A stretch of DNA of 64,000 nucleotides from Candidatus Roizmanbacteria bacterium (GCA_016214055.1 JACRPE010000011.1:793-64792); one strand, 5' to 3'; positions 1,887 through 63,474 are shown, counted from the first letter of the stretch. Notes: generated from the letters alone by a model not told the origin. Translations and numbers: made by a program.

Positions 1887-2936
1887 TTATCTTTTATGAT
1901 TTATACCATTCTGTCTCAAAAAAGTAGGAATATTAAGATCAGTTAATTGGTTTGAATAGGTTTTATCTTTTAATGAATCTATACTATCCATATCGGTCGC
2001 AATTACCGTGACTTTTATTTTTCCTTTCATTTCTTCATCAATCGTAAGACCAAACTTAATATTGGCATTCTTATTGGCAGATTGTGTAATAATGCTGGCA
2101 ATCTCATTTGTTTCTGCCATTCCTAAGTTTTTGTCACTGGTGACATTAAATATGATGTTTCTTGCTCCAGTGATTGAATTGTTAGTTAGAGGGAAGGAAA
2201 ATGCCTGTTCTATAGCTTGTTTTGATCTCTCTTCTATAGTCCCGCTCCCAACTCCTTCCCCAATGAAACCGAAAGATTTATTATCCATCATTGATTTAAG
2301 ATCCGCTAAATCTATGTTTATATGCTCGGCTACTTGGATGATCTCGGCAATAATATTAATACTTTGGTGAAGAGCTATTTTAATTTGTCCAAAAGCTTTA
2401 GTTACAAGCGTTCCTTTTTTGATATTCTCGAATATTCTTTGTTTATTTACTACAATCGTTGTTCCAGCGCTTTGTTTAATAAGCTTTAATCCTTTTTCAG
2501 CTGCAAGCATTCTTTTCTTACCTTCAAGTTTAAAAGGCATTGTTACAACGGCAATAACTAAAGCACCACATTCACGTGCAATATCAGCTACGACAGGAGT
2601 AATACCCATACTAAATCCTTTCCCCACATTACAAGTAATGAAGAGAATATCAGTATCAATCAAGTTTTTTTTAATTACCTCTTTATTATCTAGAGCGATT
2701 TCTCTCCATTTTTGAGAGCTATCTTCTGTTGTTGTGCTATTATCAATTTTATCTGCCAAATCAATACTAGTTATATTGACATTATGCTCTAAACTGTTCT
2801 TTTTGGGAGCAATAGTTGGGAAGTTAATATCACTAAACTTGTTTGACAACGCCATTTCCTGCACGGTTTGTTGACCAAAACCTCCAATGCCAATCACTGT
2901 AATTGTTGGTATTTTATTACCTAGTTTAACTAACAT
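1887..2936 (-). CDS. FtsZ/tubulin-family paralogue with a degenerate GTP-binding signature
   Basis: Collinear with the FtsZ core as I recall the E. coli sequence. TDILFITCNVGKGFSMGITPVVADIARECGALVIAVVTMPFKLEGKKRM aligns with [49 protein letters not shown]. The T7-like NIDLAD and the C-terminal LNIPTFLRQ (compare DIPAFLRKQ) are kept, but GGGTGTG has become GKGFSMG and GGGGGN has become GGFGQQ. Confidence 0.8.
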   Translation of the reverse strand: MLVKLGNKIPTITVIGIGGFGQQTVQEMALSNKFSDINFPTIAPKKNSLEHNVNITSIDLADKIDNSTTTEDSSQKWREIALDNKEVIKKNLIDTDILFITCNVGKGFSMGITPVVADIARECGALVIAVVTMPFKLEGKKRMLAAEKGLKLIKQSAGTTIVVNKQRIFENIKKGTLVTKAFGQIKIALHQSINIIAEIIQVAEHINIDLADLKSMMDNKSFGFIGEGVGSGTIEERSKQAIEQAFSFPLTNNSITGARNIIFNVTSDKNLGMAETNEIASIITQSANKNANIKFGLTIDEEMKGKIKVTVIATDMDSIDSLKDKTYSNQLTDLNIPTFLRQNGINHKR

Positions 2937-2964
2937 ATTTTTTCTTGCTGTACGAATAGGTTAT

Positions 2965-3357
2965 TTATATCATTTCCTCAACAACTTTTACTACTTTTTT
3001 AGCAAATTCATCATAATTACGGATATCTTTTTGTACAATTTTGGTAACTCCTCTTTTTTGAGCAGCTTCATTATGTTGGGGAACCGCAGAAATACTAATG
3101 ACCTTATCAGAGCCAAACCTTTCAAAATTAAGGTTGTGAAATGAATCGTTTAACTTACAATCCCTATCAAGAATGATAATGTCAAAGTTGGCTTTAGGAT
3201 TATTGTTTATATAATCTTCAACTTGGGTATAATCGGTCAAAATAACTAAGGATAGCGCATATGGTTGTTCTTGTTCAAGAAGCTCAAAATTAGCTAATAA
3301 TTTGGATAAAACAAGGAGGTTATCTTCGAGAATGAGGATTCTTTTTAGGAGGATCAT
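2965..3357 (-). CDS. Stand-alone CheY-like receiver domain protein
   Basis: 130 aa. ILILEDN (acidic pair), DIIILDRD (phospho-acceptor Asp position), VISISAV (Ser/Thr position) and IVQKD (Lys position) occur in receiver order. It lies 28 nt upstream of the FtsZ-like gene on the same strand. Confidence 0.65.
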   Translation of the reverse strand: MILLKRILILEDNLLVLSKLLANFELLEQEQPYALSLVILTDYTQVEDYINNNPKANFDIIILDRDCKLNDSFHNLNFERFGSDKVISISAVPQHNEAAQKRGVTKIVQKDIRNYDEFAKKVVKVVEEMI

Positions 3358-3502
3358 GTAAATATGATAGCAATTTGTAGGGATGAAAAAGTGATAAAAT
3401 GTATTTATGCCACTTTTTAGATTACAGAATAAGTCAATTCAAACAATAAAAGAGTCTTCATTTGATTTGAAAGAAGAGTTTCAAAATTTATATAAATAAA
3501 GT

Positions 3503-5272
3503 ATGGCGCTAACAAAAAAATATAACAACTACTCAAGAGAGGAATTAATAAACGAGTTAGAAAGTTTAAAAAGGAAGAAATATGGACTTGTGTGGGATAA
3601 AAAAAACTCACAAGAAAATCTTGATGTCTTTGTGAATTGGGAAAATATGCCTGAAAAATTTGTCCCAAAGCAATTTCCTGTTTTGAAAGAAATAACAGAT
3701 AAGGAAATTAAAACAGAATCAGACAAACCAACCAATATCTTGATAGAGGGGGATAATTATCATTCTCTCGCTGTTTTGAATTTTACCCACCAAAAGAAAA
3801 TTGATGTTATCTATATTGATCCACCTTATAATACCGGAAACCAAGATTTTATTTATAACGATAAATTTATTGATAAGGAAGATCCGTTTAGACACTCAAA
3901 ATGGCTTTCTTTTATGGAAAAACGGTTGAGATTGTCTTTTAAACTTTTAAAAAATACCGGAGTTATTTTTATTTCAATCGATGATAATGAACAAGCGCAA
4001 CTAAAACTTTTATGTGATGAAATTTTTGGAGAGGATAATTTCATTGCAAATATTTCCAGACGAACAAAATCAGCTGGTAAAACTACTGAAACAATCGCAT
4101 CAAATCATGACTATGTTGTAATTTATTCTAAAGATAGGCAAAAAGTTAAATTTAGCTCTATTTTTATTGATGACAGCGCTTACAAGCATAAAGATGAATA
4201 TTATTCTGAGAGAGGGCCATACGCATTATCACAAACCTTAGATTATGACAGTTTGTCTTACAGCGATTCACTAGATTATGAACTAAAGCTCAATAATCAG
4301 CTTCATTACCCTGGCGGAGACAAAAAAGTTTTTTTAGAAAGAAAAGGCGGAAAACATAGAGCATCAGATTGGACGTGGCGATGGGGAAAAGAACTTGTTG
4401 AATTTGGCAACAAACAGGGTTTTGTTGTTGTAAAAAAAGGAAAGAACGGCAAACCAAGAATATATACAAAGACATATTTCAAGGTTGTTATTGAAAAGGT
4501 TAATGGAAAATACACGATTGTCCCAATAGTCAGAACTAAAAACTTATCTACATTAGATTTAATGGAGTCTTCATATTCAAATGATGTTTCAAAAAAAGAT
4601 ATTCGATCAATTTTTGGTAATTATGCTGAATTTGCTTATCCAAAACCATTGTCATTGTTGAAGTACTTAATAAATACTATACCTAATCAAAATAATTCAA
4701 TTATTTTAGACTTTTTTACTGGCTCTGGTACAACAGGACAAGCAGTTTTGGAGCTTAACAAAGAAGATAAAGGAAATCGTAAATTTATCCTCTGCACGAA
4801 TAACGAAAATAACATTTGCACCGATGTTTGTTATCCTCGCATTGAAAAAGTAATAAATGGCTACAAAAATTCAAAAGGTGAAAAAGTTGCCGGCCTGGGT
4901 GGGAGTTTAAAATATTTCAAAACAGATTTTGTTGGTTCTGATTCAACCGATAAAAACAAACGGGGTTTGGTGAATAAGTCGGCTGAAATGATTTGTATTA
5001 AAGAAGATATTTTTGATTTAGTGGTTGACAATGGGCAAGATTTCAAAATCTTTCAAAAGGGTAAAAAGTTTTTGGGCGTAATTTACAACCTTGACGCTAT
5101 AACAGATTTCAAAAAAGAAGCAGAAAAATTCAAAGGTAATTTTGTGATTTATTGTTTCTCCTACACAGAAACAACTCCTGAAAAAGAATTTAAGGGCCTC
5201 AAAAATAAATATATATTGAAGCCGATTCCTGCGGTTATTTTACGCATTTATTTGGAAATTTTCAAAAAATAG
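3503..5272 (+). CDS. mod: Type III R-M DNA methyltransferase (Mod, beta-class N6/N4 MTase)
   Basis: IDVIYIDPPYNTGNQDF (motif IV) comes before FFTGSGTTGQAV (motif I), which is the beta-class order. The next gene, Res, starts 3 nt downstream. Confidence 0.85.
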   Translation: MALTKKYNNYSREELINELESLKRKKYGLVWDKKNSQENLDVFVNWENMPEKFVPKQFPVLKEITDKEIKTESDKPTNILIEGDNYHSLAVLNFTHQKKIDVIYIDPPYNTGNQDFIYNDKFIDKEDPFRHSKWLSFMEKRLRLSFKLLKNTGVIFISIDDNEQAQLKLLCDEIFGEDNFIANISRRTKSAGKTTETIASNHDYVVIYSKDRQKVKFSSIFIDDSAYKHKDEYYSERGPYALSQTLDYDSLSYSDSLDYELKLNNQLHYPGGDKKVFLERKGGKHRASDWTWRWGKELVEFGNKQGFVVVKKGKNGKPRIYTKTYFKVVIEKVNGKYTIVPIVRTKNLSTLDLMESSYSNDVSKKDIRSIFGNYAEFAYPKPLSLLKYLINTIPNQNNSIILDFFTGSGTTGQAVLELNKEDKGNRKFILCTNNENNICTDVCYPRIEKVINGYKNSKGEKVAGLGGSLKYFKTDFVGSDSTDKNKRGLVNKSAEMICIKEDIFDLVVDNGQDFKIFQKGKKFLGVIYNLDAITDFKKEAEKFKGNFVIYCFSYTETTPEKEFKGLKNKYILKPIPAVILRIYLEIFKK

Positions 5273-5274
5273 CT

Positions 5275-7527
5275 ATGTTGATGAATTTGCAATTAAAACA
5301 GTACCAAGACGAAAAAGTCGAGGAGTTAAAAAATAAAATTAATGAGCTTCTAGAATTGGACGGAAGTAAACTTTGTATTTTTGAAGCACCGACCGGCTCT
5401 GGAAAAACAATTATGGTTGGTGAGTTTTTAAAACGACTTGTCAATCCTCTCGACCGTGAGGACGAAAAACAATTTTCTGTTATTTGGATTTCTGTTCGAG
5501 ATTTACATAACCAAAGTAAAAAATCTTTAGAAAAGAATTTTGAAAATGTTTTTTGTTATTCACATTTTGAGGATTTACAGAATAATATTATTGGTAAAAA
5601 TGAAATTTTATTTTTAAACTGGGAAAAGATTTATAATCAGGATCGAATTTATATCCGTGATAACGAAAAAGGTAAAAATCTTTCTCATATTATTGAAAAC
5701 ACCAAGCAAACAGGACGAGAAATTATATTAATCGTTGATGAAAGTCATCATACAAATTTAGGCCCAAATGCCACAAAAGTGCGGGCAGATATTTCTGCTA
5801 AGATTACTCTAGAGGTTTCTGCAACACCCATATTCCATGACCCTGACGGCCATATAAAAGTACATTTTGAGAAAGTTGTTGCAGAAGGAATGATAAAAAA
5901 AGAAGTTGCTATCAATCCTGAATTTGAAAAATTAAAAGTAGACGGAAAAAGTAGTCGCGAAATGGTAATTGAAGCGACAATTGAAAAGCAAAAAAAACTC
6001 CTAAAGTACTACAAGGACGAAGGAAGTGATGTAAACCCACTTGTACTAATCCAATTACCCAATTTACAGAAAGGTATTAATGATTTAGACAAAGATGTTT
6101 TAACTGATGTTCAAAAAATACTCAAAAGAAAATATGATATTACCGAAGATAATGAACGCCTCGCAATCTGGCTTGCGGACAATAAAACACCCAACTTGGT
6201 AAATATTGAAAAATCTACAAATGATGTTGAAGTCCTCATTTTTAAACAAGCAATTGCACTTGGTTGGGATTGCCCCCGTGCCCAAATTTTGGTAATTTTT
6301 AGAGAAACCGAAAGTAAAGTTTTTTTACTACAAACAGTTGGACGAATTATGAGAATGCCCGAATATCATCATTATCAAGGCCACCCTGAATTGAATAAGG
6401 CTTATGTTTTTACAAATATTGGAGTAAATGAAATAAAACTCGGTGATGAAATTGCAAAAGAATACTTTACTATTCAAGAGGCAAAAAGAAATGACAAAGT
6501 TTATAAAGATTTAAGTTTGCCGTCAATTCATTTTATACGTCAACGCGAAAAAACAAGACTGTCAGGTGAATTTTCAAAAATCTTTATGGATATTGCAGAG
6601 AAGTTAAATTTAAAAAATAAATTGAATATAAAGAAAAATGAAATCTCTAAGGAAATAATTGTTAACGGTAAGATAATCAACATTGATAAAGCACGAACAA
6701 TTGAGCATTCAATAATGAATTATCACTCGCCTGATGTAGAAATACAGATGTATTATGATTTATTTTGCAAAGCCAGCACGGGCGAGTTTGCACCATTTGA
6801 TTCAATGGATCGTATAAAAAGTGCTCTTAACAAATTCTTTACGAGGGTAATGGGATTTGAAAATGACGACCCCGCTTTTTATAAAGTTATTCTAAACCCA
6901 GATAATATTGGGAAAGTTAACGAAGCTTTGACAACGGCAAGGGAAGAATATAAAAGAACTGTTGTAGCACAAGATGAAGAAAGAGAAATGGAAAGTTTAG
7001 TTTGGAATCTACCTAAAATTATTAGCTACAACAGTAATTATAAAGCGAGAAGTTGTAAAAAATCAATAATGGTTCCCTATTATTCAAGATATACGAACAA
7101 TAATCAGACTACTTTATTTGGTGGTTATGGGGAGGACAGTAAAGTTGAAACTGATTTTATAAATTATCTTGATAATGCTAATAAGGTTGAATGGTGGTTT
7201 AAGAATGGGAGAGGTGAGGCTAATTATTTTGCCGTTCCATATGTTGATAAATATGGAAAGAGCTCGGCTTTTTATGTTGATTTTGTTGTGTATTTAAAGA
7301 ATGGCGAAGTTTGGCTTTTGGATACTAAGAAAGGCCAAACCGCTGAAAGTGCTAAAGAACGAGCAGAAGGATTGGCAAAATATATCAAAGATCAGAAAAA
7401 GAAAGGCAAAAAACTTTTTGGGGGAATCGTGATACCTGTTGACGGCCGGTGGAGATATAATGATGATGAAAAGTATGAATATAATTCAAATGAGTTGAAG
7501 GATTGGAAATTTTTGGATTTGAATTGA
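5275..7527 (+). CDS. res: Type III restriction endonuclease subunit (Res; helicase + C-terminal PD-(D/E)xK)
   Basis: FEAPTGSGKT (helicase motif I), IVDESHH (motif II) and a C-terminal FYVDFVVYLKNGEVWLLDTKKG nuclease-like motif. Coupled to mod. Confidence 0.8.
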   Translation: MLMNLQLKQYQDEKVEELKNKINELLELDGSKLCIFEAPTGSGKTIMVGEFLKRLVNPLDREDEKQFSVIWISVRDLHNQSKKSLEKNFENVFCYSHFEDLQNNIIGKNEILFLNWEKIYNQDRIYIRDNEKGKNLSHIIENTKQTGREIILIVDESHHTNLGPNATKVRADISAKITLEVSATPIFHDPDGHIKVHFEKVVAEGMIKKEVAINPEFEKLKVDGKSSREMVIEATIEKQKKLLKYYKDEGSDVNPLVLIQLPNLQKGINDLDKDVLTDVQKILKRKYDITEDNERLAIWLADNKTPNLVNIEKSTNDVEVLIFKQAIALGWDCPRAQILVIFRETESKVFLLQTVGRIMRMPEYHHYQGHPELNKAYVFTNIGVNEIKLGDEIAKEYFTIQEAKRNDKVYKDLSLPSIHFIRQREKTRLSGEFSKIFMDIAEKLNLKNKLNIKKNEISKEIIVNGKIINIDKARTIEHSIMNYHSPDVEIQMYYDLFCKASTGEFAPFDSMDRIKSALNKFFTRVMGFENDDPAFYKVILNPDNIGKVNEALTTAREEYKRTVVAQDEEREMESLVWNLPKIISYNSNYKARSCKKSIMVPYYSRYTNNNQTTLFGGYGEDSKVETDFINYLDNANKVEWWFKNGRGEANYFAVPYVDKYGKSSAFYVDFVVYLKNGEVWLLDTKKGQTAESAKERAEGLAKYIKDQKKKGKKLFGGIVIPVDGRWRYNDDEKYEYNSNELKDWKFLDLN

Positions 7528-7550
7528 TATTTTAATTTCGCCAAAAGCGT

Positions 7551-8144
7551 TCAAGAATTAGATTTTACGATTTCTTCTTTTTGTAATCTTCGGAGCATTA
7601 GGCCAGTAGATACATGAAATACTTCTGATAGATCCTCTAAAAGTAGAAGAATGGATTCTAAAGATGCTTGATTGGGAATATTTCCGACCAGACGTTTTAT
7701 TTCTGAAAAAAGTAATTTTTTTGGTACTAAAACTTGATTGGCAAAACTGTAGGCTTGATATTCTAGCCAACCATATTCATCTTCATCTACGTTGTTTAGA
7801 AAATCACCTAATTTAACAGTTGAACTTATTTGTAATTTACTTAATATTTTACCATGCAAAATTAGATGACCTATTTCGTGGGCAATAGAACACCTTGCCC
7901 TATTTTCAAACTTGTTGTAAATATCAAAATCAATAAAAATAGTTGACAAATCAGAAGTTAAGAAACTTTCTACGTCAAAATCCTTTTTTAAGTTAAATTC
8001 TTCATAAATTTTTAAATTGAGTTTTGATTCTGCAATTTGTTCTATAGGAATAGGTAATTTTAATTGAGGATAATTTAAGGTTAGGAATTGATCGGCTATA
8101 TTACCGATCTGTTGATATGTAAGACGTGGCAGATTAAGTTTCAT
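7551..8144 (-). CDS. ImmA/IrrE-family Zn metallopeptidase
   Basis: HEIGHLILH (HExxH) sits in a 197-aa protein. Its start overlaps the stop of the upstream XRE gene by 1 nt (TGATG). Confidence 0.8.
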   Translation of the reverse strand: MKLNLPRLTYQQIGNIADQFLTLNYPQLKLPIPIEQIAESKLNLKIYEEFNLKKDFDVESFLTSDLSTIFIDFDIYNKFENRARCSIAHEIGHLILHGKILSKLQISSTVKLGDFLNNVDEDEYGWLEYQAYSFANQVLVPKKLLFSEIKRLVGNIPNQASLESILLLLEDLSEVFHVSTGLMLRRLQKEEIVKSNS

Positions 8145-8533
8145 CAGCTATTTATCAGTTTAATTAAATCTTGAAGTTTCTTTTTCGTTAGCTTTTTACC
8201 ACGGGCAGTACGAAATACTAAAGGTAAATATTTCATCGCTTCTTCGTGATTTAAAATGTCCGATGGAATTCTCCCTTTTGCTGTATTAGCCAGATCGAAA
8301 AAAGTTACCCAGTCAGATGAGCCTCTTGTTATTTTTAGTGCTGTCGCATAACCGGATAATTTTTCTTCATCTAAGGTTGGAGGTAAAATATTTCGCTCTA
8401 ACCGACTAACATTACCAGGGTCGAGCTGGTATTGTTTACAAAACGATCTTAAAGTAAACCCCAAGGCAATTCTTTTTTGTCGAAAAAACTCTCCAAATGC
8501 AATTAATTGTGATTCCCCTTGATTTTTTTTCAT
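8144..8533 (-). CDS. XRE-family helix-turn-helix regulator (ImmR-like partner of ImmA)
   Basis: FGEFFRQKRIALGFTLRSFCKQYQLDPGNVSRLERN is HTH_3-like. Translationally coupled to the ImmA-like gene. Confidence 0.7.
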   Translation of the reverse strand: MKKNQGESQLIAFGEFFRQKRIALGFTLRSFCKQYQLDPGNVSRLERNILPPTLDEEKLSGYATALKITRGSSDWVTFFDLANTAKGRIPSDILNHEEAMKYLPLVFRTARGKKLTKKKLQDLIKLINS

Positions 8534-8622
8534 AGTGTTGTATATTTATTACAACACTTGGCAATTAATTTGTCAAGAGGTATTTACAAATTCAGAAATT
8601 ACAGGAAGAAGGTGAGTGATAT

Positions 8623-8853
8623 ATGGCTAATTATAGCGTTGTTAAAAATCCAGATGGGGGTTGGGATTCAAAACGGGACAAAGCTTCTCGAATAAGTTCA
8701 CATAGCGATACCCAAAAAGAGGCCGAGGCATATGCAAAAAAATTTTCAGCAAATTCTGGGGGCGGAGAAGTACGGATTCACGGGCTTGACGGTAAAATTC
8801 GAGACAGTGATACAGTTCCACCCGGAAATGATCCTTTTCCACCGAGAGGATAA
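8623..8853 (+). CDS. DUF2188-like small protein
   Basis: 76 aa: VVKNPDGGWDSKRDKASRISSHSDTQKEAEAYAKKFSANSGGGEVRIHGLDGKIRDS matches my memory of the DUF2188 pattern. A GAAGGTGAG SD-like sequence lies upstream. Confidence 0.55.
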   Translation: MANYSVVKNPDGGWDSKRDKASRISSHSDTQKEAEAYAKKFSANSGGGEVRIHGLDGKIRDSDTVPPGNDPFPPRG

Positions 8854-8897
8854 AAAAATGAATTGTAATAAAAGTTTCAAATTCTAATATTAAGGAT

Positions 8898-9155
8898 ATG
8901 GAAATTTTAAAAAATTGGGCGAATCAAAATCAGGGCTTTTTGGCTATTATTTTGTTTTTGCTTTCTTTATTTATTGCCTGGATTTCTGGATTTTTCAAAT
9001 GGCTCTTTGGAAAATTTGATAAGAAAACTCCCTATATAAGTGCGGGTCGAGATATTAAAGCGGGAGGCAATATCTCTGTTGGCAATAAAACATTTATTCA
9101 AAAGAGTGGCAAAAATAGCACAAATGTTCAAGGTGAAAATATTATGTTTAAATAA
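8898..9155 (+). CDS. Small membrane-anchored protein (one N-terminal TM helix)
   Basis: FLAIILFLLSLFIAWISGFF hydrophobic helix. The C-terminal AGGNISVGNKTFIQKSGKNSTNVQGENI motif is repeated at the N-terminus of the next ORF. Confidence 0.4.
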   Translation: MEILKNWANQNQGFLAIILFLLSLFIAWISGFFKWLFGKFDKKTPYISAGRDIKAGGNISVGNKTFIQKSGKNSTNVQGENIMFK

Positions 9156-9157
9156 AT

Positions 9158-54063: not shown

Positions 54064-55035
54064 ATGAAAGAAAAAATAGTCATTTATAAAACAAATCATA
54101 ACGATATTGAACTGAAGGTTCAGTTTGAAGAAGAAACCGTTTGGCTCAGGCAAGATCAAATAGCTAAACTGTTTGGTAAGGAACGTTCAGTAATCACGAG
54201 GCATATCAGTGGTATTTTTAAAGACAAGGAGGTGGATAAAAGAAGCAATGTGCACTTTTTGCACATTGCTCATTCCGACAGACCTGTAGCTTTTTATAGT
54301 TTGGATGTAATTTTAGCTGTAGGCTATAGAACAAACTCATCTAGAGCTATCGATTTTAGAAAATGGGTAACACGCGTATTAAAAGACCATTTATTCAAGG
54401 GCTACACCATCAACGAAAAGCGCCTCCTGCAGGCAACAAATAACCTCAACGATTTACAAAGCGCCATCTCATTTTTGCAGGAAAAAGCAAAACACACCCT
54501 GCTAACCGGTCAGGAACAGCAAATTCTTTCCCTTCTTGCCGATTACTCAAAAACACTAACTCTGTTGGAACAATATGATAAAGATAAACTATCGTTGTCC
54601 CATAAAGGAAGGGGTACGTTTATATTGCAGTACAAAACTGCATATTCGGTGATTGGAGAGTTGAAAAAAGTATTATTTGTTAAAAAAGAAGCAAGCAGTA
54701 TCTTCGGGCAAGAGTATGAAGACAAATTCAAAGCAATTCTGGGAAACATCCGTCAAACCTTCGGCGGAAAGGAGCTCTATCCTTCGCTTGAGGAAAAAGC
54801 TGCGCACCTTCTGTATTTTGTCATAAAAGATCACTCCTTTGTAGACGGCAACAAACGTATAGGATCATTCCTGTTTATATATTTTCTCGACAGAAATAAT
54901 TATCTTTACAAACAAAATAGGGAAAAGAAAATAAATGACAATGCCTTAACCGCCCTCTCTCTTCTTATCGCCATAAGCAATCCGAAAGAAAAAGATACGA
55001 TGATAAAAATCATTACTAATTTGTTAAGAGAATGA
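54064..55035 (+). CDS. RhuM-family N-domain fused to a Fic/Doc domain
   Basis: The N-terminus VWLRQDQIAKLFGKERSVITRHI..YSLDVILAVGYRTNS is RhuM-like. The C-terminal HSFVDGNKRIG fits the Fic motif HxFx(D/E)GN(G/K)R. Confidence 0.8.
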   Translation: MKEKIVIYKTNHNDIELKVQFEEETVWLRQDQIAKLFGKERSVITRHISGIFKDKEVDKRSNVHFLHIAHSDRPVAFYSLDVILAVGYRTNSSRAIDFRKWVTRVLKDHLFKGYTINEKRLLQATNNLNDLQSAISFLQEKAKHTLLTGQEQQILSLLADYSKTLTLLEQYDKDKLSLSHKGRGTFILQYKTAYSVIGELKKVLFVKKEASSIFGQEYEDKFKAILGNIRQTFGGKELYPSLEEKAAHLLYFVIKDHSFVDGNKRIGSFLFIYFLDRNNYLYKQNREKKINDNALTALSLLIAISNPKEKDTMIKIITNLLRE

Positions 55036-55404: not shown

Positions 55405-55836
55405 TTGAAGTATTCTATATGGAATTCAAAAAATTATATGTTGCCATTCTATAAAGACTTTACAAAGTGGTTAACTCTTAAACCAAAGCTTGATCAGCTT
55501 GTATCTTATCCAAAATTCCAAGAAGGTGATATATGGTGGTGTCACATCGGCGCAAATGTTGGTCATGAAGAATGCGGAAAAGGAAATAGCTTTTTAAGAC
55601 CAATTATTATCCTCAAAAAATTCAACCACAGGATTTTCTTTGGATTACCAACCAGTTCTAAATTAAAAGAGTCAATATTTTATAGACCAATCATGATTAA
55701 GGGGAAGCAGGTATCTGTTCTCATGTCTCAAATGAGACTGTTTGACGTGAAACGACTATATTATAAACAGGGAAAAATTGGAGATGTAGAATTGCTCAAA
55801 CTCAAGAAAGATTTTGTGAAACTCCTCTTAAAATAG
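55405..55836 (+). CDS. PemK/MazF-family toxin-like protein
   Basis: FQEGDIWWCHIGANVGHEECGKGNSFLRPIIILKK..FGLPTSS. The track start is TTG, and the real start may be an ATG a few codons in. Confidence 0.65.
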   Translation: MKYSIWNSKNYMLPFYKDFTKWLTLKPKLDQLVSYPKFQEGDIWWCHIGANVGHEECGKGNSFLRPIIILKKFNHRIFFGLPTSSKLKESIFYRPIMIKGKQVSVLMSQMRLFDVKRLYYKQGKIGDVELLKLKKDFVKLLLK

Positions 55837-56147: not shown

Positions 56148-57266
56148 ATGAATAAACAAAGAAAAATATATTTCGTAATGGCTGGTGGAGGCCATGAAAC
56201 CGACAAGCATTATTACGATACCATTAAAAATCGCCGGTCGGTTAATGAATTTGGTAAATACTTAAAATCTGATGAGGTTACCATATTGGAGAGTTATTCA
56301 CATGGGAGGCCATATGCAGTTTGGGGTGCGGTTCCAGGACCAAGCAATATCAGAAATTGGGAAACAATGAATGAGGGCGATTATGTATTGGTTTACCGTC
56401 AGGGAAAAATTATCCTTGCAGCTGAAATTGCAATGAAAGTGAGAAATCCTGAGTTGGCAAACTATTTTTGGCAGAAAGATACCGATGGAAAAACCTGGGA
56501 GTTTATTTATTTTATGATCAATGACACCCCATTTAATGTCGGTATAGAAAAACTTAACAGTTATCTTGGCTATGAAGTAAATTATCACCCCCAGGGCTTT
56601 ATGGCAATAAAACAGGATAAAGTCGATTATCTTTTATCAGCTTATGGCGATTTGATATCTCTCTTAAAAAAACTTAATGAAGGACAGGAAATAGAAAAAA
56701 TTGAATTTGAGAAAAAGAAAATAGTTAATGAAATACTTGATGATCGTATCGAAAATGCACCAACTGAGCACACGGAAATTCAATGGCGTCTTATTAGATT
56801 GGGTAACCGATCAAATTTTGATGTTTGGGTCCCTATAGCAGATCAATCTAAGGAGTTTAACGGTAATAAATTTAGAGATCATGTTATTCAAAGTTTCCAG
56901 GAATCAATCGACGTACCAACCTATATTAAAAATATTGATACAGTATGGAAGCTTGGATATAGTATAAAATCAGCTTTTGAAATAGAACATTCTACTAGTA
57001 TATATTCAGGAATACTCAGATTATCAGACCTTAGAGCCTTAACCCCAAATTCAACCTATCCCCTTTTTATAGTCGCGAACCGCGATAGAAAGAATAAGGT
57101 TTTTGAACAATTACGAAGACCCACCTTTTCAAATGACTATCTTGCGCTTGACCGGGCTGTAAAATACCTTTCATATGATAAAGTCCGAAGCCTGGACGAA
57201 AGTCTAAAAGAAAAACAGACAGGCTTTAATATTGATTGGCTCATTAAAGAAGCTGAATCAGTATAA
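56148..57266 (+). CDS. Two-domain protein: PUA-like (EVE/ASCH-type?) N-terminus + PD-(D/E)xK-like C-terminus; candidate modification-dependent nuclease
   Basis: The N-terminus has YAVWGAVPGPSNIRNWETMNEGDYVLVYRQGKIILAAEI. The C-terminus has EHTEIQWRLIRLGNRSNFDVWVP..IDTVWKLGYSIKSAFEIEHSTSIYSGILRLSDL (a D...D/E-x-E nuclease-like pattern). The assignment is tentative. Confidence 0.4.
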   Translation: MNKQRKIYFVMAGGGHETDKHYYDTIKNRRSVNEFGKYLKSDEVTILESYSHGRPYAVWGAVPGPSNIRNWETMNEGDYVLVYRQGKIILAAEIAMKVRNPELANYFWQKDTDGKTWEFIYFMINDTPFNVGIEKLNSYLGYEVNYHPQGFMAIKQDKVDYLLSAYGDLISLLKKLNEGQEIEKIEFEKKKIVNEILDDRIENAPTEHTEIQWRLIRLGNRSNFDVWVPIADQSKEFNGNKFRDHVIQSFQESIDVPTYIKNIDTVWKLGYSIKSAFEIEHSTSIYSGILRLSDLRALTPNSTYPLFIVANRDRKNKVFEQLRRPTFSNDYLALDRAVKYLSYDKVRSLDESLKEKQTGFNIDWLIKEAESV

Positions 57267-57280
57267 ATTTTCTGTATAAA

Positions 57281-57685
57281 ATGGATAGATTAACAAAAGC
57301 CGCCCGTTCTGCGAACATGGCGGCAATAAAAAGTAAGAATACAAAACCTGAAAAACTAATATTCAATTTGTTAAAAAAAAGCGGTTATAAGTTTGTAAAA
57401 CACAAAAAGAATTTAACAGGAAAACCTGATGTCGTGTTCGTAAAACAAAAACTGGCAGTATTTATTGACGGGGAGTTTTGGCACGGAAGATATTTTAAGT
57501 CATGGAAAAATGAACTCTCTGATTTCTGGTTTAAAAAAATCAATGCCAACATCAAGCGGGACAAAAAAAATACCCTCTTGTTGAAACATAATGGGTGGAA
57601 GGTAATAAGGATTTGGGATAAAAATCTGAAAGAAAAACCCGAAAAAGAACTGAATAAAATTACGAAAGAACTTAACCGGAGTTAA
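57281..57685 (+). CDS. vsr: Very-short-patch repair endonuclease
   Basis: RSANMAAIKSKNTKPEKLIFNLLKKSGYKF..LTGKPDVVF..AVFIDGEFWHG. Confidence 0.85.
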   Translation: MDRLTKAARSANMAAIKSKNTKPEKLIFNLLKKSGYKFVKHKKNLTGKPDVVFVKQKLAVFIDGEFWHGRYFKSWKNELSDFWFKKINANIKRDKKNTLLLKHNGWKVIRIWDKNLKEKPEKELNKITKELNRS

Positions 57686-58773
57686 TCAATAAATCTTATT
57701 TGAAAATTTAAATTAATTTTATATTCATTGCCTTCCTTATATATTTTACCGTATTTATTTCTGCCACTGTCCGGAGAGTCGAATTTTGTATTTGCAAACA
57801 AATAGTTCTGAAATTGATTTATGTTATAAGGAGTATATCCGACTATTTCGCCGTCTTTTTTGACCACTATTACACCACCTGTTGCAGATATTAATCCTGT
57901 CCAAAGTGATTTCGCCACCATTCCCAAGGCTGAGTAAAATAAAAATTTCTTAAAGTTATGTTTTACATAAAAAGTTATGTTTTCGGGTTGAAAATCACTG
58001 ATGTCAAGATTACTTATTCCGTTAACTACATCCATGAGTGTCCTGTTTTCAGTCTTGTAAAATATAATCAATGCTGCAGCAAGCAATTGATTAAAATATC
58101 CGTCTACCCTTATTAAGTTTTCTTTAAATATTTTATTTTGCGTACTTAAAAACTTTAATTTCCCCCCTGATTCATAAATTTTTGAAATCCTTTTTCTGCA
58201 TGAATTTTCCTGATTGGCCAGCTCAGCAGAATGTTCACTTAATCCTTCAACCAGATATATTAAATTTGTTGCCTGCGATGCATTAAATAATGTTGAAGCA
58301 CTTCCTAACTTCGATTTTATGCTGTAATTTGATTGGGTCACGCTTCTCACCCGTGGATCATATGATCTGATTATCAGATCATATTTATGTTTTGAAACCA
58401 TTGACAGTGATTTTGCTTTTAGAATTGTACCTATTTCATTTCCTGTCTGAAGAAAAAAAGCCCTTTTTCCTTTAACTCCTAAAACTATTTCATTTAAAAA
58501 TTCCGATATTTTATTCTTAATTACACTTCTGTGAATCTTTTCTTCCTTCCCTGATTGCGGATCAAAAATTATTACCTCGTCACTTTTATCGATCTTATAT
58601 GCTTGGTTTTCATTGGATTCCTGCGCTACATGAACTTCTTCAACCACATAAAATACCGACTCTTTTTTTAAAAGTTTCTCATCAGCAATGAATAATTTTC
58701 CTTCGGTTAATAATTTAGCAAGAACATATAACTCGCTCCATTCTCCTTTGTTTCCGATAAATGATTTTTTCAT
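57682..58773 (-). CDS. HpaII-family Type II restriction endonuclease (tentative)
   Basis: The N-terminal NKGEWSELYVLAKLLTEGKL matches my memory of the HpaII-family N-terminus. It starts 4 nt downstream of a C5-MTase. Confidence 0.6.
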   Translation of the reverse strand: MKKSFIGNKGEWSELYVLAKLLTEGKLFIADEKLLKKESVFYVVEEVHVAQESNENQAYKIDKSDEVIIFDPQSGKEEKIHRSVIKNKISEFLNEIVLGVKGKRAFFLQTGNEIGTILKAKSLSMVSKHKYDLIIRSYDPRVRSVTQSNYSIKSKLGSASTLFNASQATNLIYLVEGLSEHSAELANQENSCRKRISKIYESGGKLKFLSTQNKIFKENLIRVDGYFNQLLAAALIIFYKTENRTLMDVVNGISNLDISDFQPENITFYVKHNFKKFLFYSALGMVAKSLWTGLISATGGVIVVKKDGEIVGYTPYNINQFQNYLFANTKFDSPDSGRNKYGKIYKEGNEYKINLNFQIRFID

Positions 58774-58777
58774 TTGT

Positions 58778-59689
58778 TTATTTCACCTGGTTAATTACTT
58801 CAAGTAATTGTGCTGCATAAGCCTGTATAGCGCTGATGGCAACACTGTTACCCAACTGTCTCATTGCCTGCCTTTTCGAAATTTCTTTCGGAAACGTAAA
58901 ATCAGCAGGAAAACCCATCATCTCTGCCGCCTCCTGAACCGTAATCTTATGTACCGTGCCGTCTGACATGCGGTAAGCATCCCAATTTCTCCTGTCATCA
59001 ATTCCCGAACTCACTCCTCCAAGTCGTAAGGTATAACCTATTTCCCGATCAATCTTTTTAGCGAAAAGTTTTGACAGATTAAATTTTAAAGGGATTTTCG
59101 AAGGAGCTTCAAACTTTATATGATTGTCAGCATTATTTCGGAATCCTATCATGTAGGTTCGCGGTCTGTGTGTCGGTAAACCGTAATCGGACGCTCTTAC
59201 GGGATATGCATGAAATGAATAACCCAGCTTTCTTATTATTCTTTCCATCTCTTTTATGGTGCTTCCTCCACCGTGACTCATCAGACCTCTTACGTTTTCA
59301 ATAAAATATGCTTTCGGTCTCCTGGCATCAAGTATTTTTACGATATCGTAAAAAAGCGTGCCTCTTGCCTCGTCCAAAAAGCCCTTTTTTTTACCAGCCT
59401 GACTGAAAGGTTGACATGGAAAACCTCCTGTTAATATGTCAAATTTTGGGATATTAGCCTTAATTTTTTCCAACGATTCGGTTACTTTTGTAATATCTCC
59501 GCCGAAGTGAATCGGCTTTTTAAAAAGTTGCGGATGGCGAGGTTTGAAATAGTTTTCATAGGTTATTCTGCAATACTTTTCATACTCAGATACGTACACA
59601 CATACCGCTCCAAGGTTACTGAAAGCTATATGAAAGCCTCCTATACCAGCAAATAAATCAATGAATTTCCATCCACGCTTTTTTTTCAT
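58778..59689 (-). CDS. dcm: DNA (cytosine-5) methyltransferase
   Basis: FIDLFAGIGGF (motif I), GGFPCQPFSQAGKKKG (motif IV), ENVRGL (motif VI), QLGNSVA (motif X). Confidence 0.9.
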   Translation of the reverse strand: MKKKRGWKFIDLFAGIGGFHIAFSNLGAVCVYVSEYEKYCRITYENYFKPRHPQLFKKPIHFGGDITKVTESLEKIKANIPKFDILTGGFPCQPFSQAGKKKGFLDEARGTLFYDIVKILDARRPKAYFIENVRGLMSHGGGSTIKEMERIIRKLGYSFHAYPVRASDYGLPTHRPRTYMIGFRNNADNHIKFEAPSKIPLKFNLSKLFAKKIDREIGYTLRLGGVSSGIDDRRNWDAYRMSDGTVHKITVQEAAEMMGFPADFTFPKEISKRQAMRQLGNSVAISAIQAYAAQLLEVINQVK

Positions 59690-59698
59690 AAAGAATAA

Positions 59699-60448
59699 TT
59701 ACACTTTACCATCTTCCTCGACATAGTGTAACAAATCATTCTGAAATGTTTGAAGAAGTTCTTTTATTTGTTCCTTGTCCAAGGTAGTGAATAGTTTATA
59801 ACCACCTGTAAAATTCATTCTTCGCATTAATAAACGGACCTTTCCTTCTTTTTGGGTTGAAAATAAATCTGGTTTTTCCAGAATGTATTCCAAAACAGCA
59901 TGAGTAAAATTTCTGTTTCTACCCTGTACTCCCGAGATTAATGTTCTGTTGAAATCCAGCATTGAAAACAACATTTCTGTCAGCTCATAAGGATTCTGTC
60001 GTGTTTTATCTAGTGTCAAATAAACGCCCCACCATAAAGAAGAAACAGCGTTTCGAGAAAGATCAGGAGCGCTCGGATTTTTTACAAACCAGTGCTCCAA
60101 AATATACGAGCTTTTATTTACATTCGGCCATCTAGCTTTTGTATATTTCCAGAACGGTCCATGTGTGAGATATGTCCATAAACCAGGATCAGAAGCTTTA
60201 ATTAAGGGGAGATCTGCGTAGGCCTCATAAATAATCTTTGCATTTTCAAAATCGTATTTGTCTTTTTCGTTGGGAATTGATAAATTAATAGTCTCTGGCA
60301 CCGATATTCTTGCATCGATAAGACAATTTTCATCAAGAATTGTAAAAGAATCTTCAGAATAAAAATTAAGGATGGAACTATCATTATTTTCTAGTCTTTT
60401 TACCAAATGCTCAATGTATGCTTTTTTGAAAACTTTTTGATATATCAT
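59699..60448 (-). CDS. Uncharacterised protein D of the GHKL-associated module (helical, 249 aa)
   Basis: Long ORF with a 4-nt overlap with gene C and a 9-nt gap to dcm. It contains ASDPGLWTYLTHGPFWKYTKARWP..LSRNAVSSLWWGVYLT, which I cannot place in a family. Confidence 0.6.
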   Translation of the reverse strand: MIYQKVFKKAYIEHLVKRLENNDSSILNFYSEDSFTILDENCLIDARISVPETINLSIPNEKDKYDFENAKIIYEAYADLPLIKASDPGLWTYLTHGPFWKYTKARWPNVNKSSYILEHWFVKNPSAPDLSRNAVSSLWWGVYLTLDKTRQNPYELTEMLFSMLDFNRTLISGVQGRNRNFTHAVLEYILEKPDLFSTQKEGKVRLLMRRMNFTGGYKLFTTLDKEQIKELLQTFQNDLLHYVEEDGKV

Positions 60449-61320
60449 ATTGATGATGTTGTGTTTGTTTGCGTAGCGATTTTCTCCATCGATACAAACA
60501 GTCTGTTAAAGGGAAATCCGAGCATGATCTGTGCAATCTGTGGTATGTTGCTTGGATTCCATAACTCTTTTATTTCTGGTTTGTTAAGTTTTTGGGAATC
60601 AAGAACCCTATACCACTTGTAAGCGTTATAATCATCACCGCGATTTGACATCATTTCCGATAAGGCATAAATCAGACAGGATAGCACCAGAGAAGAATGA
60701 TAAATTGAAGGAAAATTCTCGTTTTCATCTTTGTAGTTTTCATGGTATTCATAATTTTTTTTAGATAGATCTATATATATTATGTCTCCTTCTAAATTAA
60801 ATACCGCTGATCCTTCCTCTTTTTCCGAGTCTTGTCTAATTTTAATTATGTTAAAGATTCTTCTCAGATCTTCCCATAGGATCTCCGCTTCAAATGTAAC
60901 CATTCCAGCGTAGGCAATTACATCTCCCGCGTCAAGAACAAAAGAAATGCCGTTATAATCCTCGTTAGCATTTTCGTTAATGTAATTTTGAATTTTTGTA
61001 TTTATGGTGATGTAAAACGATACCGACACGGTATTACGAAGTAAGTTTTTGTTTAATTCGATTTGACAGATAGGATCCGAAAATGAAAATGACTTTCTGA
61101 AAAACGTAGAACGACATTCTATCTCAATAACAAAAACCGCTTTATTGTTTTTCAGTAAATCTTCAATAGTTTTATTTTGTAAAACAAATTCAACTGATAA
61201 AACAGTATTTTCATTAAGCTGTTTCAGAACAAATCCGTCCTTCTTCACTGAGAATAAGCCGTTTATATCGTCTTTACGGCCTAATACTGGATGGGGAAAA
61301 AGTAAACTATTGACTTTCAT
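60445..61320 (-). CDS. Uncharacterised protein C of the GHKL-associated module (291 aa)
   Basis: Long ORF with a 14-nt overlap with gene B. N-terminus LLFPHPVLGRKDDINGLF..VFVIEIECRS. I cannot place it in a family. Confidence 0.6.
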   Translation of the reverse strand: MKVNSLLFPHPVLGRKDDINGLFSVKKDGFVLKQLNENTVLSVEFVLQNKTIEDLLKNNKAVFVIEIECRSTFFRKSFSFSDPICQIELNKNLLRNTVSVSFYITINTKIQNYINENANEDYNGISFVLDAGDVIAYAGMVTFEAEILWEDLRRIFNIIKIRQDSEKEEGSAVFNLEGDIIYIDLSKKNYEYHENYKDENENFPSIYHSSLVLSCLIYALSEMMSNRGDDYNAYKWYRVLDSQKLNKPEIKELWNPSNIPQIAQIMLGFPFNRLFVSMEKIATQTNTTSSI

Positions 61321-63163
61321 ATGCTCTTAAATTTAATGAATATTTACCGGGAATACCGAAAACCAACCTTAATTTTAATTTTTTATTTTCGGGTATGACA
61401 AGACCTGTAACCAGGTTATTTTTAAACTTATAATTTTCTCCATTATCACCGACAACCTTCTTCAAATCTATCTCATCGAAGGAGTCTTCCGTTCCGATCC
61501 GCACTTCCATATCAAATTTATCATTAGGATTTCCGGTGATAAAAACAACGTGTTCAAATTCGGCTCCGTTATCGGTAACGAAGGATCTTACAAATGTAAT
61601 GTTGTTGTTGATCTTTGTCCACTGCTTCCCTTCGGGATCAGGATGACCTTGTCCTTTTTTTCCTCCCCCTTCGCCTCCTCCTACACCACCGCCAAATCCT
61701 CCTCCGCCCGGTTCGGCTTTGACTTCCTGCGGTAAAGTTACCTGAATATTTATGACGGATGATTTTTTAATTGTGTCGGCTCCTCTGATTAAAGATCCTG
61801 TTTGTTCTTTTTTTATTTGACCTTCAATACTCTCAGGATTTCCCTGTTCATCTGGGTTATTATCTTCAGCTGGAGAATAGAAATATTTATCGAGATCCTT
61901 TATGTTAGATTCTGTTGAATCGACTGTTGTTATCAAGGATTTGATAGTTGATCTAATAAATTTATTCAACTCCTTTTCCGCCTTTGCATATTTCTGTATA
62001 TCCTCCAGTTTTATCCTTGAAGGAACATCTTTACTCCACTTACTATGAGTTGGATCTTCCATCTTTCTGAGGATTCCGTTTTCATCTGGCGTAAAAAATA
62101 CCCCAGCAAAACCTTTACCTATATTAAAACCTTTATTTTGAATTACCATCCCCGTATTCCTGAAAAATTCAATTCTTTTCGGATAGTTTTTTTGCATCAG
62201 AATGCGAAGCTTTACGTTGCCTATTACAGGTAAATTCTGTTCAAATAATTCTCCTTCTTTATAGGCTTTGAGATAAGAAATCGGGTTAAAAGCGTCTGAT
62301 AAATCTTCTGCGGAAAAAAAATCATAAACATAATCTTCGATATTGGTATAGTCTATAAAACTATCACCAATCCGGACTTCCAGTAAATTATCGTGTATGG
62401 CAAGCCAAAAATATCTAAGAACAGATTCAACCATTCTTTTTTGCCAATGTTGACAGTCTTCAAAGCCCAAGATATAAATACTTGTTCCTTGTTTTTCACG
62501 TCGGAATTCTTTAGGGATTAACTCGCTATCCCTAACGGCAGGAGAAGAATATACTCCGATTCCCTGCTTCATTACATCGTTTTGTTTGTGACTGACTAAT
62601 CTGAGTTTTCCCTGAAAAACATGTTGATTTTTTTCCCATATGCTTGAAACAAAAATTGTTCTGAAGAGAGATGGTCTGAAATATGCACCTTTACCCAAAC
62701 CGTGACTTCCTCCCATACCTTCAGTCTTGTTTGATGAACCAGCCATTTTCATCAGTTTGTAATAGGCTCCACCTCGATCGTTTTCATCTCCATAAAGACC
62801 GGTTGTATTGTAATCGCTTATTTTCATAACATTAAATGAGATGTTGTTGTGCATGTGATCGTATGCTTTTTTAAAGAAATCCTCTGCTTCTTCGTCTTTA
62901 TCGTCTTTTGATTGTCTCCAACAGGACGCATAAATTTCAGTTAATTTTTCAGCGTCAGGAAGGGATTTAGGAAACATCTTGAATATTTCAAATTCAGCTC
63001 TGGCAGGTCTCTTTTGGGTTAGGTCTTTTGCATCGACTATATTTTGGATTGCCTCCCTGGTGAGAGTATAATGAATATCTTCGGCAGAGAAATTATAAAT
63101 CAGAGGGTCATGGAAGCCAGTTTCTTCAGCAACTCCTATAGGATCAAATATATATGTATCCAT
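61307..63163 (-). CDS. GHKL-superfamily (Hsp90/MutL/MORC-like) ATPase with a Gly-rich linker and a C-terminal beta-rich domain
   Basis: LTREAIQNIVDA (N-box ExxxNxxDA), ISDYNTTGL (G1-like), GMGGSHGLGKGAYF (G2, GxxGxG), then EPGGGGFGGGVGGGEGGGKKG and a ~120-aa C-terminal domain. Confidence 0.55.
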   Translation of the reverse strand: MDTYIFDPIGVAEETGFHDPLIYNFSAEDIHYTLTREAIQNIVDAKDLTQKRPARAEFEIFKMFPKSLPDAEKLTEIYASCWRQSKDDKDEEAEDFFKKAYDHMHNNISFNVMKISDYNTTGLYGDENDRGGAYYKLMKMAGSSNKTEGMGGSHGLGKGAYFRPSLFRTIFVSSIWEKNQHVFQGKLRLVSHKQNDVMKQGIGVYSSPAVRDSELIPKEFRREKQGTSIYILGFEDCQHWQKRMVESVLRYFWLAIHDNLLEVRIGDSFIDYTNIEDYVYDFFSAEDLSDAFNPISYLKAYKEGELFEQNLPVIGNVKLRILMQKNYPKRIEFFRNTGMVIQNKGFNIGKGFAGVFFTPDENGILRKMEDPTHSKWSKDVPSRIKLEDIQKYAKAEKELNKFIRSTIKSLITTVDSTESNIKDLDKYFYSPAEDNNPDEQGNPESIEGQIKKEQTGSLIRGADTIKKSSVINIQVTLPQEVKAEPGGGGFGGGVGGGEGGGKKGQGHPDPEGKQWTKINNNITFVRSFVTDNGAEFEHVVFITGNPNDKFDMEVRIGTEDSFDEIDLKKVVGDNGENYKFKNNLVTGLVIPENKKLKLRLVFGIPGKYSLNLRAYESQ

Positions 63164-63193
63164 TTTTATTTACAACGTTCAGTTTGGGCAATT

Positions 63194-63406
63194 TTAAAAT
63201 TTAAAGGTCTGTTTCACAAACTTGAACTTCGTTTTTACTATTTTCAGCTGTTCCTCAAGTACCTTAAACATTTTATTCACATCTTCTTCATTATAATCGT
63301 AATAACTTTTATTGGAAAGATTGCTTAGAATTCTAATTTGATTGAGAAGATTATTAACTCTTTTGGTAGCAATTCGCTTAAAATGTGATCGTCTGTCCTC
63401 TTCCAT
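63194..63406 (-). CDS. Small helical protein A (70 aa), first gene of the cluster
   Basis: ORF directly behind a TTGACT-N17-TATCAT promoter. KRIATKRVNNLLNQIRILSNLSNKSYYDYNEEDVNKMF. Confidence 0.5.
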   Translation of the reverse strand: MEEDRRSHFKRIATKRVNNLLNQIRILSNLSNKSYYDYNEEDVNKMFKVLEEQLKIVKTKFKFVKQTFKF

Positions 63407-63412
63407 ATTTAA

Positions 63413-63441
63413 ATGATAGTATATATATACAATAAAGTCAA
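63413..63441 (-). promoter_or_regulatory. Sigma70-like promoter of the A-B-C-D-M-R cluster (leaderless)
   Basis: The minus strand reads TTGACT-N17-TATCAT-ttaaat-ATG, so the ATG is 6 nt after the -10 box. Confidence 0.45.
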
Positions 63442-63443
63442 TG

Positions 63444-63474
63444 GGTTATATAACCTATTTAATAGGTTATATAA
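63444..63474. promoter_or_regulatory. Operator-like palindrome GGTTATATAACC plus a half-site repeat
   Basis: A perfect 12-nt palindrome at 63444-63455 and GGTTATATAA again at 63465-63474, immediately upstream of the -35 box. Confidence 0.35.

Follow-up and report, generated by a model that had tools for sequence, protein, structure and literature searches.

A GHKL ATPase module beside DNA methyltransferase genes in Candidatus Roizmanbacteria and its match to the PADLOC candidate PDC-M33

The genome of a Candidatus Roizmanbacteria bacterium, a member of the candidate phyla radiation, carries six genes, here called A, B, C, D, M and R, on the minus strand of the 64,000-nucleotide stretch analysed (GCA_016214055.1, JACRPE010000011.1:793-64792; the window, whose coordinates are used throughout). 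The first four, together ABCD, are the module under study. It is very probable that this locus belongs to PDC-M33, a candidate entry of the PADLOC catalogue, and that the module is linked to DNA methyltransferase genes. The module is already catalogued, hence not a new discovery, and the kind itself is uncharacterised. All six genes are contiguous in the open reading frame (ORF) list of the window, which agrees exactly with the head-to-tail order and spacings given in a preliminary description made from the sequence: a 30-nt gap between A and B, a 14-nt overlap of B and C, a 4-nt overlap of C and D (ATGA), a 9-nt gap between D and M and a 4-nt gap between M and R. The features of the locus are as follows.

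63194-63406, minus strand: gene A, ORF of 70 aa
61307-63163, minus strand: gene B, ORF of 618 aa, GHKL ATPase, PDC-M33A match
60445-61320, minus strand: gene C, ORF of 291 aa, PDC-M33B match
59699-60448, minus strand: gene D, ORF of 249 aa, DUF6339, PDC-M33C match
58778-59689, minus strand: gene M, ORF of 303 aa, C5 cytosine DNA methyltransferase
57682-58773, minus strand: gene R, ORF of 363 aa, HpaII-family restriction endonuclease
57281-57685, plus strand: Vsr endonuclease (PF03852, 5.9e-26), convergent with R with a 4-nt overlap
63413-63441, minus strand: sigma-70-like promoter match, -35 TTGACT (63441-63436), 17-nt spacer, -10 TATCAT (63418-63413)
63446-63474, no strand assigned: perfect inverted repeat with 14-nt arms, TTATATAACCTATT-A-AATAGGTTATATAA (29 bp), just upstream of the -35 element

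Catalogue match, conservation and methyltransferase linkage

In a search of PADLOC-DB v2.0.0, reported to E ≤ 0.1, B matched PDC-M33A at 5.7e-108 (residues 3-616 on profile positions 4-625 of 627), C matched PDC-M33B at 1.2e-55 (residues 1-283 on positions 1-284 of 289) and D matched PDC-M33C at 1.6e-45 (residues 17-234 on positions 12-237 of 247). The three genes are adjacent, contiguous and overlapping, and they are collinear with the three profiles. B, C and D match no other profile in this database, and A matches none within the same threshold. AbiR and the MutL-type Mza system are both included in PADLOC-DB v2; AbiR and the other named multi-gene systems were rejected as the identity of ABCD, as none of them gave a PADLOC match. 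Homologues of B from Bacillus atrophaeus and from a Lactococcus plasmid score about 1e-150 to 1e-160 against PDC-M33A, and by comparison with these members from Firmicutes the window holds a divergent member. The preliminary description had matched A-D to none of the named defence systems, which is half right: B, C and D match PDC-M33 over their full length, but PDC-M33, like the other PDC entries, is an unpublished candidate. It was not among the several PDC candidates put to the test in one study. The core of PDC-M33 is B (the GHKL ATPase), C and D (DUF6339), to which the small basic protein A is added in this clade.

Conservation of the module was followed in about 30 loci, referred to below by number where needed. 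A scan of one genome per GTDB species, seeded with a 12-sequence alignment of B, gave 24 true loci, and further loci came from four individual homologue look-ups and from two annotated regions of a plasmid search; the same genome scan with the single B sequence found nothing. In all loci compared B, C and D occur together and in the same order. The order A-B-C-D is kept in more than 20 loci, from unrelated genomes of Patescibacteria, Bacteroidota, Planctomycetia, Omnitrophota, Elusimicrobia, Gammaproteobacteria and Bacillus, both with and without the HpaII pair, so that the four genes are indeed co-conserved and the arrangement is far beyond chance. A hidden Markov model search placed A directly upstream of B in the window and in 21 loci, and A is missing only at contig ends or in the divergent lineages L011, L016, L028, L030, L032 and L033. 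An overlap of B and C by 11-20 nt recurs across phyla in most relatives, and the two proteins co-evolve (Spearman rho 0.77; 0.43 for B and D); the conserved overlap and the co-evolution suggest a stoichiometric complex. Among the viral contigs of IMG/VR no relatives of B were found, and there is thus no evidence of carriage by phages. Enrichment of ABCD in bacteria of the candidate phyla radiation is one addition of the present analysis. Homologues of PDC-M33 are also found in cultivable, tractable hosts, i.e., B. atrophaeus (L026), where the module sits between groEL and a FokI-like restriction-modification (R-M) system with Dcm and Vsr, and Lactococcus lactis plasmid pS127 (L032, NZ_CP061323.1 106588-110213). 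RefSeq annotates B and C of both as hypothetical proteins only.

The most constant neighbour of the module is a DNA methyltransferase gene. A C5 methyltransferase lies within a few kilobases of ABCD in 26 of the 27 loci of the clade with sufficient sequence on their flanks. Its gene directly follows D or directly precedes A, on either strand, and is in some cases translationally coupled to the module, with overlaps in L005 and L011 and a gap of 9 nt in the window. Next to the methylase a Vsr homologue is found in 19 of the 24 related genome loci and also in B. atrophaeus; no Vsr is detectable in L024, L030 and L031. L028, L032 and L033 have N6-adenine methylases only. The more distant BCD modules of Lactococcus and Ligilactobacillus plasmids have other partners, namely N6-adenine methylases, type I/IIS R-M genes and AbiG. 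On the conjugative plasmid pS127, BCD lies beside AbiGI/AbiGII and is flanked by an AlwI R-M system, which has two N6-adenine methylases, and by a fragment of an N6 methylase; on Ligilactobacillus megaplasmids it lies between hsdS with an N6 methylase on one side and MmeI, methylase and helicase genes on the other. A DNA methyltransferase is thus near the module wherever flanking sequence is available, and it is its chemistry alone that differs. Apart from the methylase and Vsr, no conserved neighbours were found among the ABCD loci.

In the window the methylase belongs to a complete type II R-M system of the HpaII type, as had been proposed, M being a C5 methyltransferase (PF00145, 2.8e-65; TIGR00675, 2.6e-66) and R an RE_HpaII endonuclease (PF09561, 5.1e-85) encoded in one operon. 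CCGG would be the expected recognition site from the family membership of the two. The suggested tie of the module to this CCGG-type pair as such did not hold up. An HpaII-type enzyme is present in three loci only (the window, L012 and L024), and a C5 methyltransferase, usually with Vsr, is present almost always; the HpaII system is accordingly ruled out as the specific partner of ABCD. Other loci carry endonucleases of the EcoRII type (L016), the FokI/BpuJI type (B. atrophaeus) or the HNH type (L011), at least five loci hold a complete type II R-M system, and most have no recognisable or conserved endonuclease. The methylases of ABCD loci represent at least six clades, and their exchange has been independent of the module: L002 and L010, whose ABCD is the closest (about 60% identity in B), have a methylase that shares only about 32% identity with M, while the most distant relative, L024 (29% identity in B), has the closest methylase (50%) together with an HpaII enzyme. 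The correlation between B and M is 0.20. That methylases of at least six clades have been exchanged in this way points to a need for methylation in itself rather than for one particular recognition site.

Proteins of the module

The product of gene B is 100% identical to the NCBI protein HZC27_02940. Its N-box, G1-like and G2 motifs, noticed already in the preliminary description, are present and invariant in an alignment of 38 homologues. The invariant residues are R36, E37, Q40, N41 and D44 in the N-box, D117 and G122, and G152, G155, G157 and K158; R222, R335, E369, H373 and W376 are invariant in the same alignment. These three motifs and the fold of the model place B in the GHKL superfamily, with a G1 box that is atypical (SDYNTTG). 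An AlphaFold2 model (mean predicted local distance difference test score, pLDDT, of 80, mostly above 90 up to about residue 415) shows a Bergerat-fold N-domain followed by a transducer domain of the Hsp90/MutL/TopoVI-B type, a long helix (residues 386-417), a linker and a beta-sandwich. The Gly-rich linker and the beta-rich C-terminal domain that had been read from the sequence are both seen, the former at residues 428-515, disordered in the model with a pLDDT below 50, and the latter at about 520-618. Foldseek matched the model to TRAP1, the mitochondrial Hsp90 (5e-10 over about 440 columns, spanning the N and middle domains), to TopoVI-B (1.4e-6) and to the N-terminal fragment LN40 of MutL (1.4e-3), in agreement with the expected GHKL fold and with an S5-type fold after the ATPase domain. 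As modelled, B is a GHKL ATPase with the usual second (middle) transducer domain and an intact ATP site, i.e., it has the architecture of MutL, GyrB, Hsp90 and MORC. Residues 144-154, which have low confidence and sit between G1 and G2, would in the model take the position of the mobile ATP lid of GHKL proteins. An invariant ExxxH (E369-H373) lies at the C-terminal end of the transducer, before the helix at 386-417.

No model of Pfam, NCBIfam or PHROGs matches B, a profile of B found nothing among PDB sequences, and a MutL C-terminal domain was not detected in it. The MORC-specific motif GhXhhpXXRhl is not evident among the conserved columns of two alignments of B, which were not compared with a reference MORC alignment.

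A, C and D had been described as falling in no family, and searches of Pfam, NCBIfam, PHROGs and PDB and with Foldseek place none of them in a functionally characterised one. D is Pfam DUF6339 (3e-49). Its AlphaFold2 model is mostly alpha-helical and of high confidence (pLDDT 90.6, predicted template modelling score 0.87), and Foldseek found no fold match for it in PDB (best E 0.8) or among the viral predicted structures of BFVD. In the alignment of D the residues N69, D87, W91, H96, W139, W140, D147, D165, R205 and N212 are invariant, which suggests a binding or catalytic site. A HEPN RNase was considered, as R177-x5-H183 resembles the Rx4-6H motif, and rejected, since H183 is not conserved. 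The only domain fusion seen among all ABCD components is a 514-aa DUF6339 protein (L008:2855-4399) fused to two C4 zinc ribbons of the topoisomerase I type (1.6e-16), and this fusion points to action on DNA. C carries an N-terminal LPHPVLG motif and belongs to a family with 2,220 cluster representatives (50% identity) at E ≤ 1e-3, all of them standalone proteins of about 280 aa. Pfam gave no match in 23 members, NCBIfam and PHROGs gave nothing, and profiles of C and D found nothing among PDB sequences even at E ≤ 10.

Protein A is basic (isoelectric point 9.9) and follows the family consensus RFKRLAxxRVxxVLxxLxxLGNCSNRxxYxY...KF...FKL. Judged by the alignment, which holds 20 true homologues and one unrelated row (L028), it is a genuine conserved fourth subunit family. 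A has no family in Pfam, NCBIfam or PADLOC, nothing meaningful in PHROGs, no detectable DNA-binding domain and no helix-turn-helix match.

A promoter with an adjacent operator-like palindrome had been proposed upstream of A. Both were located at the positions listed above. The promoter is a consensus match only, at 10 of 12 positions, in a region that has 32 sigma-70-like matches against 26.7 ± 4.5 in shuffled sequence, and the palindrome, which may be an operator, has no counterpart upstream of A in 19 related loci. The -10 element lies 6 nt from the ATG of A (63406), so that the predicted mRNA would be nearly leaderless. The near-leaderless promoter and the palindrome look like regulation specific to this locus. 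A conserved operator-binding controller was rejected as the identity of A, the palindrome not being conserved and A lacking a helix-turn-helix match.

Possible functions of ABCD

The reading preferred here, held tentatively and at slightly less than an even chance, is that ABCD is a methylation-gated, ATP-driven defence of a restriction-like kind, related in type to MORC and paraMORC. By analogy with MutL, Hsp90, TopoVI-B or MORC, B would dimerise on ATP, and we infer that together with C, D and A it would form an ATP-driven complex that clamps or scans DNA, with C, D and A as its recognition and effector partners. The neighbouring methyltransferase, a C5 methylase in the window, would mark host DNA as self; Vsr would repair the T:G mismatches that arise from deamination of 5-methylcytosine and so limit the mutational cost of this base; and DNA without the mark would be restricted or silenced. 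The nuclease activity would reside in C or D, or else in partner enzymes, i.e., HpaII in the window and EcoRII-, FokI- or HNH-type enzymes elsewhere. Such gating by methylation fits three published cases, the predicted operons of Iyer et al. (2008), VcSduA and AbiR, which are compared below.

Several observations weigh against a methylation-gated defence. ABCD stays constant while the specificity and even the chemistry (C5 versus N6) of the methylase changes, and it is hard to see how a constant module could read such a changing mark. In L028 a C5 methylase is missing from the neighbourhood. Searches of A-D with Pfam, NCBIfam, PADLOC and PHROGs, and the PDB searches of C and D, recognised neither a nuclease nor a methyl-reader domain, and in the five or more loci with a complete type II R-M system a second restriction activity would be partly redundant. 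A literature search for PDC-M33, DUF6339 and defence by a GHKL protein plus a methyltransferase found no characterisation and no experiment. Finally, the neighbourhood statistics rest on about 30 loci and are not a genome-wide enrichment test.

A bolder proposal is that the module is a new class of ATP-driven restriction machinery that reads base methylation generically, independently of the site of the methylase, through C and/or D, e.g., the invariant Trp/Asp/His cluster of DUF6339. Such a module would make any orphan methyltransferase a complete system for telling self from non-self and might be a major form of immunity in the CRISPR-poor bacteria of the candidate phyla radiation. This is speculative and, in our estimate, rather unlikely.

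Three other explanations must be set beside methylation gating. ABCD may be an autonomous defence, acting for example by abortive infection or by sensing invaders, which does not read methylation and is found near R-M systems because defence genes cluster and move together. PADLOC models PDC-M33 as a self-contained three-gene system, the genes around the module, methylase and Vsr aside, differ between loci and often have to do with defence themselves, distant members are accompanied by Abi genes and by R-M of various types, and the co-evolution of B and M is weak (rho 0.20), all of which is consistent with autonomy. On the other hand a methylase is adjacent in essentially every locus, often coupled to D or A and drawn from at least six independent clades, and this linkage, matched by no other neighbour, is much tighter than ordinary co-location in an island; autonomy is accordingly given a limited chance, well below even. 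It is less probable still that ABCD is an accessory of the adjacent R-M system, which loops or processes nicked or cut DNA, blocks repair, or controls the establishment of methylase and nuclease, with A as a regulator at the palindrome. A single operon joins ABCD with M and R in the window, a perfect palindrome is present at the promoter upstream of a small and basic A, and complete restriction endonucleases occur in the window, L012, L024, L016, L026 and probably L011; looping of DNA between recognition and cleavage sites has moreover been proposed for paraMORCs (Iyer et al., 2008; PMC2292703). Most loci, however, consist of methylase and Vsr with no recognisable or conserved endonuclease, and the palindrome is not conserved though A is, A itself having no detectable DNA-binding domain.

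The least probable of the explanations, and one we consider very unlikely, makes ABCD a repair helper carried with mobile Dcm-Vsr cassettes, in which B would act as a MutL-like stimulator of Vsr in very-short-patch repair. Vsr adjoins the methylase in about 20 loci, the fold of B is shared with the N-terminal fragment of MutL, a functional interaction of MutL with Vsr is known from E. coli (cited in PMC2292703), and independence from the sequence specificity of the methylase would suit a generic repair factor. A role in repair is difficult to reconcile with the occurrence of BCD where no Vsr is detectable (L024, L030, L031), where only N6-adenine methylases are present and such repair is irrelevant (L028, L032, L033), and, next to Abi genes, on conjugative plasmids as well as within defence islands. 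The fold of B is, in addition, closer to Hsp90 and TopoVI-B than to MutL, whose C-terminal domain was not found.

If the methylation-gated model is true, PDC-M33 would be a widespread immune system resembling R-M, with a restriction half made of a GHKL motor and two proteins of unknown fold, and it would provide a tractable prokaryotic model for the response of MORC-type ATPases to DNA methylation. Practical entry points are the cultured B. atrophaeus, the conjugative L. lactis dairy plasmid on which BCD lies beside AbiG, and the Ligilactobacillus megaplasmids.

The surrounding island and comparison with known systems

The genes that flank ABCD loci belong to defence families (AbiJ-like, SMODS, PD-(D/E)xK, NB-ARC and RhuM-Fic), and the surroundings are in other respects those of a typical defence island. 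In the window three further genes, all on the plus strand, precede Vsr.

54064-55035, plus strand: RhuM-Fic/DOC fusion protein, full-length match to PADLOC PDC-S23 (3.5e-118), also matching PDC-S05 profiles
55405-55836, plus strand: ORF of a PemK/MazF-like toxin (7.8e-7), about 35 residues longer at the N-terminus than the Pfam domain
56148-57266, plus strand: 372-aa protein, its C-terminal half matching a PADLOC type II restriction endonuclease (REase_II-like, 5.5e-9) and weakly Pfam IFS

In a cold-seep study (PMC12881386), protection against phages was obtained with a representative of PDC-S05. For the PemK-like toxin no partner antitoxin gene was identified. The reading frame of the 372-aa protein stops 15 nt short of Vsr, with which it shares its strand, and the protein could be a second, possibly modification-dependent, endonuclease of the island. 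The defence island that had been described is thus present as far as Vsr, RhuM-Fic and the PemK-like toxin are concerned; its "PUA-like nuclease", which is this 372-aa protein, has no detectable PUA domain and has the REase_II-like match instead.

Some loci carry lineage-specific genes next to the module. Upstream of B in L030 (377-1711) is a gene for a 444-aa protein with weak AIPR similarity, and downstream of D in L028 (11639-12951) are a 234-aa protein weakly resembling the endonuclease/exonuclease/phosphatase family and a 192-aa protein of unknown kind. An actinomycete locus (L025:7917-13967) has three short ORFs weakly similar to parts of B (5.5e-15 to 2.3e-5) and another ORF that matches D marginally (E 9e-4), with a homologue of Vsr encoded about 2 kb upstream; the locus may represent a GHKL system that has decayed or diverged strongly. 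Elsewhere in the window, positions 2000-11000 have a G+C content of 0.30-0.34 against about 0.38-0.42 in other parts, with a mostly positive GC skew, and could have been acquired as a further island; tRNA genes cluster at 17.3-18.2 kb.

Iyer, Abhiman and Aravind (2008; PMC2292703) predicted that the GHKL proteins of the MORC and paraMORC groups function in R-M operons together with Vsr and cytosine methylases, and the preliminary description was right to recall GHKL ATPases from R-M-like operons, the theme of cytosine methylase plus Vsr being described in that work. Like B, they are ATPases with a GHKL domain and an S5-type transducer, encoded beside cytosine methylases, Vsr-family endonucleases and assorted nucleases, and they share with B a patchy, laterally mobile distribution. 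B differs in having no Pfam GHKL match, and C, D (DUF6339) and A are not mentioned by these authors. The ExxxH that is the hallmark of paraMORC2 (PMC2292703) is present in B at E369-H373, a shared motif which is by itself no proof of membership. The neighbourhoods of paraMORC2 include superfamily-II helicases and a novel restriction endonuclease, and the lack of a conserved helicase around ABCD speaks against a context of the typical paraMORC2 kind.

In the GHKL-Shedu protein VcSduA of Vibrio cholerae, an anti-phage protein of the paraMORC3 type that has been confirmed by experiment, the ATPase domain is required for phage defence and is thought to gate the effector (PMC12137116). VcSduA unites its domains in one polypeptide, with a DUF4263 nuclease of the PD-(D/E)xK family at the C-terminus, whereas B ends in a beta-sandwich. 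Shedu/paraMORC3 was rejected as an identity for the module, A-D having no match to Pfam DUF4263 or to PADLOC Shedu. The lactococcal AbiR consists of three genes, needs the methylase LlaKR2I of a neighbouring R-M system and is toxic without it (PMC13064643). As a multi-gene defence beside a complete type II R-M system it resembles the methylation-gated model proposed here, but it has no homology to ABCD, its proteins resembling a sigma-70 factor, ParB and a nuclease-SNF2 helicase fusion.

PDC-M33 itself has the same gene order as B-C-D of the window, with D and PDC-M33C both being DUF6339. The version in the window differs by the extra conserved gene A and by an operon shared with a C5 methylase and an HpaII-type enzyme. 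What is new relative to the catalogue entry is subunit A, the near-obligate linkage to methylases irrespective of their specificity, and the finding that DUF6339 has no known fold.

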